Notes under the pieces: generated by a model
Told to the model about the DNA's origin: nothing
Seen by the model: the letters and a program-made list of their open reading frames with translations, nothing else
Database searches by the model: none
Made by a program: the position numbers and the translations under genes
From: a virus
Lineage: Duplodnaviria; Heunggongvirae; Uroviricota; Caudoviricetes
Length of the DNA: 27,260 bases
Virus record (IMG/VR): IMGVR_UViG_2541047905_000014
Strand: one strand, 5' to 3'
Part shown: positions 6,922 to 9,202 of the stretch, in pieces
Layout of the letters: each line of letters starts with the position of its first letter
How positions within the stretch are numbered: the stretch's first letter is position 1

Positions 6922-6951
6922 TTGCTCGAGGCATAACGTAGAAGGTTGGCT

Positions 6952-7227
6952 ATGAACTTAAGAGACTATTTAAAAGAGAAACATATCACCCAGCTACAGT
7001 TTGGGAAGCTAACGGGTTTATCTCAGGTGCATGTAAGTCGAGTGCTGGGGGGCTATGAAAGATTCAGCCCTGAAAAAGCATTACGTGTTGCTGAAGTAAC
7101 GAATTTCGAGGTTACACCTCATGAACTCCGGCCTGATATTTACCCGAATCCAACCGACGGCTTACCTGTTGGATTCAAGGCTAACACACCAAATGCATCG
7201 GAGTTGATTCATGAAAATCAGGCATGA
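6952..7227 (+). CDS. Cro-like HTH regulator (YdaS/DicC-like)
   Basis: HTH motif LQFGKLTGLSQVHVSRVL. GAAGG RBS 6 nt before the ATG at 6952; the track's 6946 start is a TTG. Divergent from the repressor gene. Confidence 0.65.
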   Translation: MNLRDYLKEKHITQLQFGKLTGLSQVHVSRVLGGYERFSPEKALRVAEVTNFEVTPHELRPDIYPNPTDGLPVGFKANTPNASELIHENQA

Positions 7228-7636
7228 GCACATCCGCATGGCGATGAATGCCTGGGCGCATCCGGACGGTGAAAAAGTTCCGGCAGCTGAAATAACCCGG
7301 GCTTATTTTGAGCTTGGTATGACGTTCCCGGAATTATATGACGACAGCCATCCGGAAGCCCTGGCTCGCAATACCCAGAAAATTTTCCGCTGGGTGGAGA
7401 AAGACACTCCTGATGCGGTTAAAAAAATTCAGGCGTTGTTACCAGCGATCGAAAAAGCAATGCCGCCTCTGCTGGTGGCCCGAATGCGCAGCCACAGTTC
7501 AGCTTATTTTCGGGAGCTGGTGGAGACGCGGGAACGACTGGTGAGAGACGCTGATGATTTTGTCGCAGTGGCGATCGCTGGTTTCAACCAGATGAATCGT
7601 GGTGGCCCTGCAGGAAATATTGTGGCTGTGCATTGA
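7211..7636 (+). CDS. YdaT-like / CII-position regulatory protein (141 aa)
   Basis: ATG overlaps the stop of the cro-like gene. It occupies the cII position, and its size matches Rac YdaT (about 140 aa). Family assignment is from memory only. Confidence 0.55.
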   Translation: MKIRHEHIRMAMNAWAHPDGEKVPAAEITRAYFELGMTFPELYDDSHPEALARNTQKIFRWVEKDTPDAVKKIQALLPAIEKAMPPLLVARMRSHSSAYFRELVETRERLVRDADDFVAVAIAGFNQMNRGGPAGNIVAVH

Positions 7637-7707
7637 CTCGCAATATTCATACCGGATCACTTCCGGCAATTTGTGAGTAAAAAGATTCGGTATCAGAAGA
7701 GGTGAGT

Positions 7708-8748
7708 ATGGCTAACGCCTGGCTCAGATTATGGCATGACATGCCAAATGACCCTAAGTGGCGAACAATTGCCAGGGTGTCAGGGCAGCCAATTGCAACA
7801 GTGATGGCAGTGTATATCCACCTTCTGGTGAGCGCGTCACGAAATGTCACGACATGTCACGGCGTGTCACTACGTGGTCACATTGATGTCACGACGGAAG
7901 ATTTAGCAAGTGCGCTTGATGTGACGGAAGAAGTAATTGATTCAATTTTACAGGCAATGCAGGGGCGGGTACTTGATGGAGATTTAATCACCGGATGGGA
8001 AAAACGCCAGGTACTGAAAGAGGACAATGGCAACGTTTCACAAACCGCGAAATCCCCGGCAGAGCGCAAGAGAGCGCAGCGCGAGAGGGAAAAATTACGA
8101 AAACAGAATGAGGGGTGTCACGACGAGTCACGCATATGTCACGACATGTCACGACGAGTCACGACAGATAAAGATACAGATAAAGAATTAAACCCCACAC
8201 ATAACGCGCACGTGCGCGAGAGTGCTCCGACCAGTGAGTCGAGTGGTACGCCGTTGCAGGCAGCAGAACCTGCATCCCTGGATGGACTGAGCGAACCCAT
8301 CGGGAAATTTCCGATGGTCGATGACTGGCATCCGTCGCCGGATTTTCGACGACGGGCTGCGTTGTGGGGGATGGCTTTGCCGGAGCCGGAATTTACACCT
8401 GCTGAACTTGCCGCTTTCCGGGACTACTGGGCAGCGGAGGGGAAAGTTTTCACGCAGGTTCAGTGGGAGCAGAAATTCGCCCGTCACGTAAATCACGTCA
8501 GGGCGCAGGTTAAGCCAGTCAGCAAGGGGGTAAACCATGCAGCAGCACCAGGTGGCACCGCATCACGGGCAGTTCAGGAAATTCGGGCAGCACGTGAGCA
8601 GTGGGAACGTGAAAACGGATTTATCAGCGACGGAAACGGTCTGGAAGCTGTGGGAACTCATGGGGGAGGTTTATTCGAACCGCTGGACCCAGAAGAACGG
8701 GGCCGCACCTTCGAAGCTCTGGATTGCACAGATTGGCGCGATGACTGA
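7708..8748 (+). CDS. Replication initiator, O-like, with origin iterons embedded in the coding sequence
   Basis: GAGGTG RBS then ATG at 7708 (the track start 7702 is a GTG). The gene contains two clusters of 10-bp iterons and an AT-rich tract. The C-terminal region (DDWHPSPDFRRRAALWGMALPEPEFTPAELAAFRDYW) resembles a DnaT-like domain. The 3' end overlaps the P-like gene. Confidence 0.75.
   Translation: MANAWLRLWHDMPNDPKWRTIARVSGQPIATVMAVYIHLLVSASRNVTTCHGVSLRGHIDVTTEDLASALDVTEEVIDSILQAMQGRVLDGDLITGWEKRQVLKEDNGNVSQTAKSPAERKRAQREREKLRKQNEGCHDESRICHDMSRRVTTDKDTDKELNPTHNAHVRESAPTSESSGTPLQAAEPASLDGLSEPIGKFPMVDDWHPSPDFRRRAALWGMALPEPEFTPAELAAFRDYWAAEGKVFTQVQWEQKFARHVNHVRAQVKPVSKGVNHAAAPGGTASRAVQEIRAAREQWERENGFISDGNGLEAVGTHGGGLFEPLDPEERGRTFEALDCTDWRDD
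7834..7895. repeat. Origin iteron cluster 1 (about six copies of rTGTCACGAC, 10-bp period)
   Basis: GCGTCACGAA ATGTCACGAC ATGTCACGGC GTGTCACTAC GTGGTCACAT TGATGTCACGAC read directly from the sequence. Confidence 0.7.
8115..8192. repeat. Origin iteron cluster 2 (about five copies) plus adjacent AT-rich tract (putative ori core)
   Basis: GTGTCACGAC GAGTCACGCAT ATGTCACGAC ATGTCACGAC GAGTCACGAC, followed by AGATAAAGATACAGATAAAGAATTAAA. Architecture parallels lambda ori inside gene O. Confidence 0.7.
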
Positions 8749-9202
8749 GCAGCAAATCCGACAGGTCTGCCGCCAGTGCATGGACCGCTGCCGGGCGGGT
8801 GAAACATGGCCTCCGGACCTGGCTGAGTTTGTGGCGCTGATTTCAGAAAGCGGGGCCAATCCATTTGGCCTGACGGTGGATGCTGTGATGGAGGAGTACC
8901 GCCGCTGGCGTGATGAGTCCTGGCGATATGACGGAAGCGACAAATATCCGTGGCCTCAGCCTGTGCTGTACCACATCTGCCTCGAAATGCGTACCAGAGG
9001 GATTGAGCGCCAGATGACGCAGGGTGAGTTAAAACGACTTGCGGAACGGCAACTGACGAAATGGGCAAAGCATGTTGGTAACGGGATGAGTGTTCCGCCA
9101 GTGCGACGACAACTGGAAGGGGCGAAACACCCGCAAGGGCCAACGCCAATTGAACGGCTGAAACAGGAATACGAACGCCGGAAGGCAGCTGGTTTTATTT
9201 GA
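8537..9202 (+). CDS. Replication protein P-like (DnaB helicase loader)
   Basis: Alignable by eye with lambda P: WPPDLAEFVALISE versus PSPGQFVAWCREE, and YPWPQPVLYHICLEMRTRG...GELKRLAERQL versus YPWKSNAHYWLVTNLYQNMRA...AELRRKAADEL. AAGGGGG RBS 6 nt before the ATG at 8537. Confidence 0.75.
   Translation: MQQHQVAPHHGQFRKFGQHVSSGNVKTDLSATETVWKLWELMGEVYSNRWTQKNGAAPSKLWIAQIGAMTEQQIRQVCRQCMDRCRAGETWPPDLAEFVALISESGANPFGLTVDAVMEEYRRWRDESWRYDGSDKYPWPQPVLYHICLEMRTRGIERQMTQGELKRLAERQLTKWAKHVGNGMSVPPVRRQLEGAKHPQGPTPIERLKQEYERRKAAGFI

Follow-up and report, generated by a model that had tools for sequence, protein, structure and literature searches.

Replication origins embedded in the gene of their own initiator, as in phages lambda and SPP1, are textbook cases and have been described with a single repeat array. 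The origin of lambda (ori-lambda) has been defined experimentally, and the number of its iterons varies among relatives, with 4 in lambda and 6 in Shiga toxin (Stx) phages (PMC7466680). In SPP1, oriL lies within gene 38, which encodes the organizer G38P itself, and comprises repeats ('AB boxes') with an adjacent A/T-rich DNA-unwinding element (DUE); G38P has a further site, oriR, at a distant, separate locus of the genome (PMC5737612). The present study concerns a locus of related anatomy in a stretch of 27,260 nucleotides (IMG/VR record IMGVR_UViG_2541047905_000014), referred to here as the window. It originates from a lambdoid Escherichia coli prophage inserted beside ompW, and its segment 7600-8800 is 100% identical to strain 118UI. 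Within it, the replication initiator gene at 7708-8748 carries two separated arrays of a short iteron, which recur at equivalent positions across a large initiator family and are under purifying selection at the DNA level. We consider it probable that the replication origin of the prophage is embedded in this gene and is bipartite, the array proximal to an A/T-rich tract forming a core with that tract and the distal array providing a second set of sites.

Two iteron arrays and an A/T-rich tract within one gene

The features of the gene that bear on its candidate origin are the following.

7708..8748, plus strand: replication initiator gene, 346 residues (open reading frame; RefSeq annotation of the identical E. 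coli 118UI prophage; PHROG; Pfam; AlphaFold 2 model)
7834..7895, plus strand: distal array (cluster 1), six head-to-tail copies, GTCAC cores at 7836, 7846, 7856, 7866, 7877 and 7888
7852..7872, plus strand: lineage-specific 21-bp expansion, two extra iterons, residues 49-55 TCHGVSL (alignments; IMG/VR relatives)
7919..7927, no strand: variant copy GATGTGACG, core GTGAC (inverted GTCAC), 33 bp past the last direct copy of cluster 1
8115..8165, plus strand: proximal array (cluster 2), five head-to-tail copies, cores at 8117, 8127, 8138, 8148 and 8158
8166..8192, no strand: A/T-rich tract AGATAAAGATACAGATAAAGAATTAAA, 27 bp, 18.5% GC, predicted DNA-unwinding element
8205..8218, no strand: G+C-rich perfect palindrome of 14 bp, CGCGCACGTGCGCG, shortly past the A/T tract; the O157 and Rac-SA53 copies carry a similar sequence

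The initial annotation of the window had placed about six and about five iterons in this gene, and both clusters hold up, with six copies at 7836-7888 and five at 8117-8158. The maximum density of six GTCAC per 60 bp was never reached in 300 Markov simulations (mean 1.5, maximum 3), so that a chance cluster was rejected. Tandem Repeats Finder picks out two arrays of period 10, 7836-7881 and 8116-8166, and 9 of the 15 GTCACG hexamers present in the whole window sit in the two array stretches. The motif rTGTCACGAC occurs as 5 exact copies and 3 copies with one mismatch, the conserved core being GTCAC(G), and successive cores are spaced by 10, 10, 10, 11 and 11 bp in cluster 1 and by 10, 11, 10 and 10 bp in cluster 2. 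Motif and orientation are the same in both clusters, which reach up to 90% identity over a 30-bp stretch. The distance that separates them is 219 bp (7895 to 8115), in agreement with the first estimate, and the intervening DNA is of ordinary composition.

At the protein level, the AlphaFold model, built on 73 homologs, shows a helical N-terminal domain (residues 1-100) predicted with confidence (predicted local distance difference test, pLDDT, above 90), save for a less confident loop or hairpin at residues 46-62. Both arrays fall in structurally permissive segments of this model. Cluster 1 codes for residues 43-63, which form the loop/hairpin between helices 3 and 4 of the N-domain (pLDDT about 70), and cluster 2 for part of a disordered linker (CHDESRICHDMSRRVTT; pLDDT below 50-60). 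Because the 10-bp period rotates the reading frame, the cores are read as SR, VT and C/G-H dipeptides, the three reading frames of GTCAC(G). The peptide repeats announced by the initial annotation are therefore real insofar as similar short peptides arise from both clusters (SRNVT; CHDESR/CHDMSR), but they do not form a simple tandem peptide repeat.

The A/T-rich tract, also recognized from the outset, adjoins cluster 2 and lies in the interdomain linker coding region. It is the least stable 30-bp window in 7600-8800 and stands at the 99.4th percentile of the whole window. Two further elements had escaped the initial annotation, namely the variant copy at 7919-7927 and the palindrome at 8205-8218; besides the latter, a scan for promoters and terminators found nothing meaningful within the initiator gene. 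A palindrome also follows the A/T-rich tract of ori-lambda, which makes the 14-bp palindrome a further point of likeness.

Conservation of the arrays and selection on their DNA

The N-terminal module of the initiator has at least 1000 homologous proteins in a homology search. DNA was taken for a census of 56 loci from alpha-, beta- and gamma-proteobacteria, Acidobacteria and others, with 52 full-length genes counted, and two arrays are present at equivalent gene positions in about 46 of these 52. In about 25 loci, whose hosts range from 42 to 68% GC, GTCAC is found at gene positions ~129, 139, 149 and 160, GTGAC at ~193, and GTCAC again at ~387-427. Most genes of this GTCAC group show the copy pattern '++++-'. 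The inverted copy is kept family-wide: the codon of V72 is GTG in 17 of 17 homologs, whereas other valine columns are scrambled. Other subgroups use other cores (GTCACG, CGAACGC, GTAACG, GTGACGC, TGTAA and CTACG are found across the family), and both arrays of any one gene share theirs. The repeat type tracks the N-module subgroup, and an 'AS.N...RG' loop framework is kept in every subgroup. Spacing between the arrays varies from about 157 to 320 bp. Past the last proximal iteron, a GATA[AC]AGA tract starts at about 9 bp in nearly all homologs, regardless of iteron type or host GC.

Copy number has changed within this layout. The family ground state of cluster 1 is four copies, and the in-frame expansion of 21 bp, which adds seven residues to the N-domain loop, is confined to the E. 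coli/E. albertii clade. Among about 77 IMG/VR relatives, which are close E. coli relatives used for copy-number polymorphism rather than for the wider census, the number of copies is 6 or 4 in cluster 1 and 4-6 in cluster 2. The initiator region is common in this host: of 5426 complete E. coli genomes, 2564 have a match to one or other of its modules, and in 658 the match extends over 80% or more of the region; the matches include O157:H7 prophages and prophages beside Stx2a phages. In most homologs the arrays have been gained or lost together. Loci L053 and L054, from a beta-proteobacterial metagenome-assembled genome (MAG), lack both arrays and the A/T tract, and may belong to a domesticated or repurposed branch of the family. 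That MAG holds at least 4 N-module homolog copies (L053, L054, L055 and L057), of which L053 and L054 are the full-length copies examined. One homolog, L041 from an Edaphobacter MAG, has no distal array and seven proximal CGAACG copies (gene nt 346-407) versus the usual 2-5, and it is the only such homolog.

Selection on the DNA was addressed by a codon test on 20 non-redundant genes of the GTCAC group, whose hosts have 42-68% GC, taking the fraction of the top codon in each conserved column.

Cluster 1 cores: 10 columns, top-codon fraction 0.97, p = 4e-7 versus other conserved residues
Cluster 2 cores: 5 columns, top-codon fraction 0.91, p = 3e-4 versus other conserved residues
A/T tract: 3 columns, top-codon fraction 0.96, p = 2e-3 versus other conserved residues
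Other conserved residues (reference): 56 columns, top-codon fraction 0.51

Codons that overlap the cores are fixed while those of other conserved residues are scrambled. Selection therefore acts on the DNA, and both arrays are under DNA-level purifying selection. The CGAACGC subgroup gives a concordant result (0.94 versus 0.56, p = 5e-4). A/T-ending codons (TCA, GGT, AAT, GAT, AAA) are retained even in hosts of 65-68% GC, and within the A/T tract the codons of D154 (GAT), K155 (AAA) and D156 (GAT) are fixed. The core-encoded residues S44, V47, T48, R56, G57, H58, V61, T62, H145, S148 and V151 are also among the most conserved of the protein. No hidden conserved DNA element was found between the arrays, because synonymous sites there are scrambled, apart from the variant copy at V72.

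The A/T tract has a further property, in that it coincides with the joint of a mosaic gene. The N-half of the initiator gene (to about 8186) shares 87-90% identity with phages 689R5, Evi and Tritos, and the C-half (from about 8166) 92-93% with Rac-SA53 ydaU/ydaV and with PPompW phages; the tract is common to all N-half and C-half relatives. C-modules are highly diverse across the family and are always joined at the tract. Since it is common even to genes with unrelated N- or C-modules, the tract may double as a recombination joint. Rac-SA53 ydaU (L003, 1016-1560) has such an unrelated N-module, located upstream of the same A/T tract. In that gene a perfect 10-bp inverted repeat, TGTTCAAACA / TGTTTGAACA, stands shortly before the tract, and ATGTTCAA is present at gene nt 148; on this suggestive match of 8-10 bp, the YdaU N-module possibly has a parallel two-site layout.

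A candidate bipartite origin and the role of its distal array

By its position and its PHROG family (phrog_1408 and phrog_3729, 'replication initiation protein'), the gene at 7708-8748 is an initiator gene. The gene order is repressor, cro-like, cII/YdaT-like, initiator (plus strand) and lambda-P-like loader. The designation 'O-like' in the initial annotation is apt for position and role but not for sequence, and membership of the lambda O family was rejected (BLASTP against lambda O, E 2.4; no Pfam O domain, Phage_rep_O). The protein is composed of a winged-helix-like N-module (residues 1 to about 135), a disordered linker (residues ~137-190) and a DnaT-like C-terminal domain. This last domain and the loader gene complete the list of features.

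8308..8508, plus strand: DnaT-like domain binding single-stranded DNA (ssDNA), residues 201-267 (Pfam PF17948, E 9.6e-18, 64 bits versus a cut-off of 25)
8741..9202, plus strand: lambda-P-like helicase loader gene (PF06992, E 5e-16; PHROG 109 'P-like helicase loader'; RefSeq start)

In a Foldseek comparison, the C-domain matches the DnaT-ssDNA complex 4ou6 with E 2e-5, 59% identity and a root-mean-square deviation of 1.1 Å. Equivalence to full-length DnaT was rejected, the score for NCBIfam NF002770 being 97 bits versus a cut-off of 201, with a match confined to residues 192-278. The N-module was assigned to no named family by Pfam or PDB sequence searches, and Pfam finds only the DnaT domain in the whole protein; weak similarities link the N-module to the PHROG families 'replisome organizer' (phrog_4880, E 4.5e-5) and 'DnaD-like' (phrog_10469, E 4.8e-7). 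The start of the loader gene overlaps the end of the initiator gene. A longer P-like open reading frame (8537-9202) begins at 8537 and overlaps the initiator gene by ~210 nt out of frame, the RefSeq start being 8741, and the phrog_15931 profile (482 positions) spans both the initiator and the P-like protein, as though the two were fused in some records. Upstream, the cro-like and cII-like genes (6946-7636) match Pfam 'YdaS toxin' and 'YdaT toxin', names that are odd for the position of early regulators. Elsewhere, in the early-left region, an imperfect 21-bp tandem repeat of ~3.7 copies (2280-2366) lies under a gene annotated as an exonuclease in 118UI.

The reading that we favour assigns a function to each of these parts. 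The N-terminal winged-helix-like domain would occupy the head-to-tail GTCAC(G) repeats with one protomer per helical turn. It is most likely the protein that binds these 10-11 bp units: in 18 loci of the GTCAC group from other genera, no protein but the N-module is always encoded within 1.5 kb, with Cro-like, cII-like and P-like neighbours in 2, 1 and 2 of the 18, respectively, and the DnaT C-module in none. In phage Tritos, whose genome is complete, tandem pairs of iterons are confined to these two clusters. The stretch 8115-8192 would be the unwinding core, where the proximal array lies against the 27-bp tract (8166-8192) at which the DNA is predicted to melt; it is taken as such because its iterons and A/T tract match the anatomy of the experimentally defined ori-lambda (PMC7466680) and of SPP1 oriL. 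The DnaT-like C-domain, attached through the linker that the proximal array and tract encode, and the lambda-P-like loader may then act on the melted strands and recruit host DnaB, by analogy with the ssDNA binding of DnaT (PDB 4ou6). Finally, the distal array (7834-7927), which lies ~220 bp upstream within the region coding for the DNA-binding domain, would offer second sites to the same initiator and cooperate with the proximal array, by looping or in one larger nucleoprotein complex, in building or stabilising the initiation complex. From sequence comparison we infer the binder of the repeats, the melting site and the positive effect of the distal array.

The distal array is most likely cooperative with the proximal one, and possibly regulatory. 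A cooperative role is favoured because L053 and L054, devoid of the proximal array and A/T tract, are also devoid of the distal array; because L041, the only gene with a normal proximal array and no distal one, has extra proximal copies; because a 21-bp expansion in the E. coli lineage brought the distal array from 4 copies to 6; and because a lytic replicon has little use for a brake. Several points weigh on the other side. The N-domain has no significant Foldseek or Pfam match to a DNA-binding fold, the best winged-helix hits having E > 0.3. Helical phasing between the arrays was looked for across the homologs and none was found; the spacing being variable and unphased, a fixed loop geometry is unlikely. 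The low-GC homologs L031, L037 and L044 have at most 1-2 degenerate copies and no distal array. In addition, the argument for a positive role draws on a single homolog that shows compensation, together with general considerations on lytic phages.

A stronger version can be offered tentatively, as a possibility that falls somewhat short of an even chance. The distal array could be an obligatory, cooperating half of the origin, the two halves bracketing the DNA that codes for the initiator's helix-turn-helix and wing, and this throughout a large phage initiator family. If so, specificity and both target arrays would evolve and recombine as one cassette of ~450 bp, and the target sequence would dictate conserved residues of the very protein that reads it.

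An alternative that we regard as unlikely, though a serious contender, is that the proximal array and A/T tract make up the whole origin. The distal array would then be a negative element that titrates or handcuffs the initiator, or a roadblock operator that shuts down transcription of the initiator and loader genes. In favour of this explanation, copy-control loci of iteron plasmids (incA of P1, incC of F) classically have a second array of identical iterons beyond the minimal origin. The distal array also comes early in the transcription unit, before the P-like gene and most of the initiator gene, has a conserved copy in opposite orientation and lacks an adjacent A/T tract. A limit on copy number, however, would be of little gain to a lytically replicating phage, and the arrays are lost together. 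The extra proximal copies of L041 look as if the total number of sites counts, and the E. coli lineage enlarged its distal array from 4 to 6 copies while keeping five proximal ones.

It is very improbable that another protein binds the repeats and that they serve in partition or as a centromere-like site, in packaging, or as an array for a host factor. What speaks for such a site is that two clusters of head-to-tail repeats of ~10-11 bp recall plasmid centromeres, for instance parC of R1. Against it, no other gene co-occurs with the repeats across genera, the repeat type follows the N-module subgroup, and the proximal array always abuts the A/T tract at the domain joint, like known embedded origins.

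The initial annotation had also raised a duplicated origin. The shared motif and orientation of the clusters and their 90% identity over 30 bp would suit a recent duplication into two independent origins, but we see hardly any likelihood in it. The two-array layout is old and family-wide, for distant homologs have it at equivalent positions. The distal array is not followed by a conserved A/T tract; the moderately A/T-rich stretch at 7935-7965 is not kept in high-GC homologs such as L027, and recent expansion is limited to 21 bp of cluster 1. A recent duplication was therefore rejected, as contradicted by the family census. Least credible, and rejected on the codon test, is that the repeats are a by-product of protein-level selection for a conserved peptide motif with no DNA role, for although core-encoded residues and the 'AS.N...RG' framework are well conserved, synonymous fixation occurs at the cores only, including A/T-ending codons in 65-68% GC hosts, and the cores stand in all three reading frames and encode both a folded loop and a disordered linker.

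On the bipartite reading, a second array that is conserved, co-varying and codon-fixed inside the DNA-binding-domain coding region would represent an uncharacterised origin architecture. Initiators that bear such arrays offer a natural example of overlapping protein and DNA-site codes, and the iteron types, at least six in number, would be ready-made specificity classes for the study of initiator/origin co-evolution. The locus also raises the question of whether a distal iteron array is a helper or a brake in a lytic replicon.

Comparison with described origins

No description of the origin of this initiator family was found in the literature on iterons, replisome organizers, Rac/ydaU and Stx-phage replication types, and a paper on the Eru replication types of Stx phages does not discuss origins and repeats. 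The closest systems can nevertheless be set beside it. As in ori-lambda, the candidate origin lies midway along the gene, at the joint between an origin-binding N-domain and a loader-interacting C-domain, and its iterons are directly followed by an A/T-rich tract. A P-type loader gene also lies immediately downstream in both; most of the distant N-module homologs lack it. The initial annotation was right to contrast the two separated arrays with lambda, which, when checked likewise, shows one array of four 20-bp repeats at 20-24 bp spacing and no second cluster. Its iterons are of ~19-20 bp with internal dyad symmetry, whereas those found here are head-to-tail units of 10-11 bp in two arrays 219 bp apart, the distal one inside the DNA-binding-domain coding region.

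With SPP1 oriL, the locus shares repeats and a predicted DUE embedded in the initiator's own gene, and some relatives of the initiator are annotated 'phage replisome organizer', although the initiator itself has no match to Phage_rep_org_N (PF09681), even at E <= 10. Unlike in SPP1, the second array is ~220 bp upstream in the same gene and the C-domain is DnaT-like.

Two arrays of the same initiator-binding repeats associated with a rep gene are known from the iteron plasmids P1 (incC/incA) and F (oriS). The distal array (7834-7927) resembles the incA type of P1, in that it has the same core, lies outside the predicted unwinding core and has no conserved A/T tract beside it. In P1 and F, however, the arrays lie to either side of the gene, negative regulation by the second array is proven and the Rep family is different, whereas here both arrays are inside the gene. 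The satellite phage P4 provides a bipartite origin (ori/crr), whose initiator binds the same short repeats in two clusters, both of them needed in cis. Its clusters differ in being ~4.5 kb apart, its initiator is a primase-helicase (alpha protein), and neither cluster is in DNA-binding-domain coding sequence. Lastly, short iterons in two sets also accompany an A/T-rich melting region in the origins of Staphylococcus aureus pathogenicity islands and other phage-inducible chromosomal islands (SaPI/PICI; PMC6092414). Those sets lie downstream of the rep gene, one on either side of the A/T region, whereas in the prophage initiator gene both arrays lie upstream of the tract and within the coding sequence.

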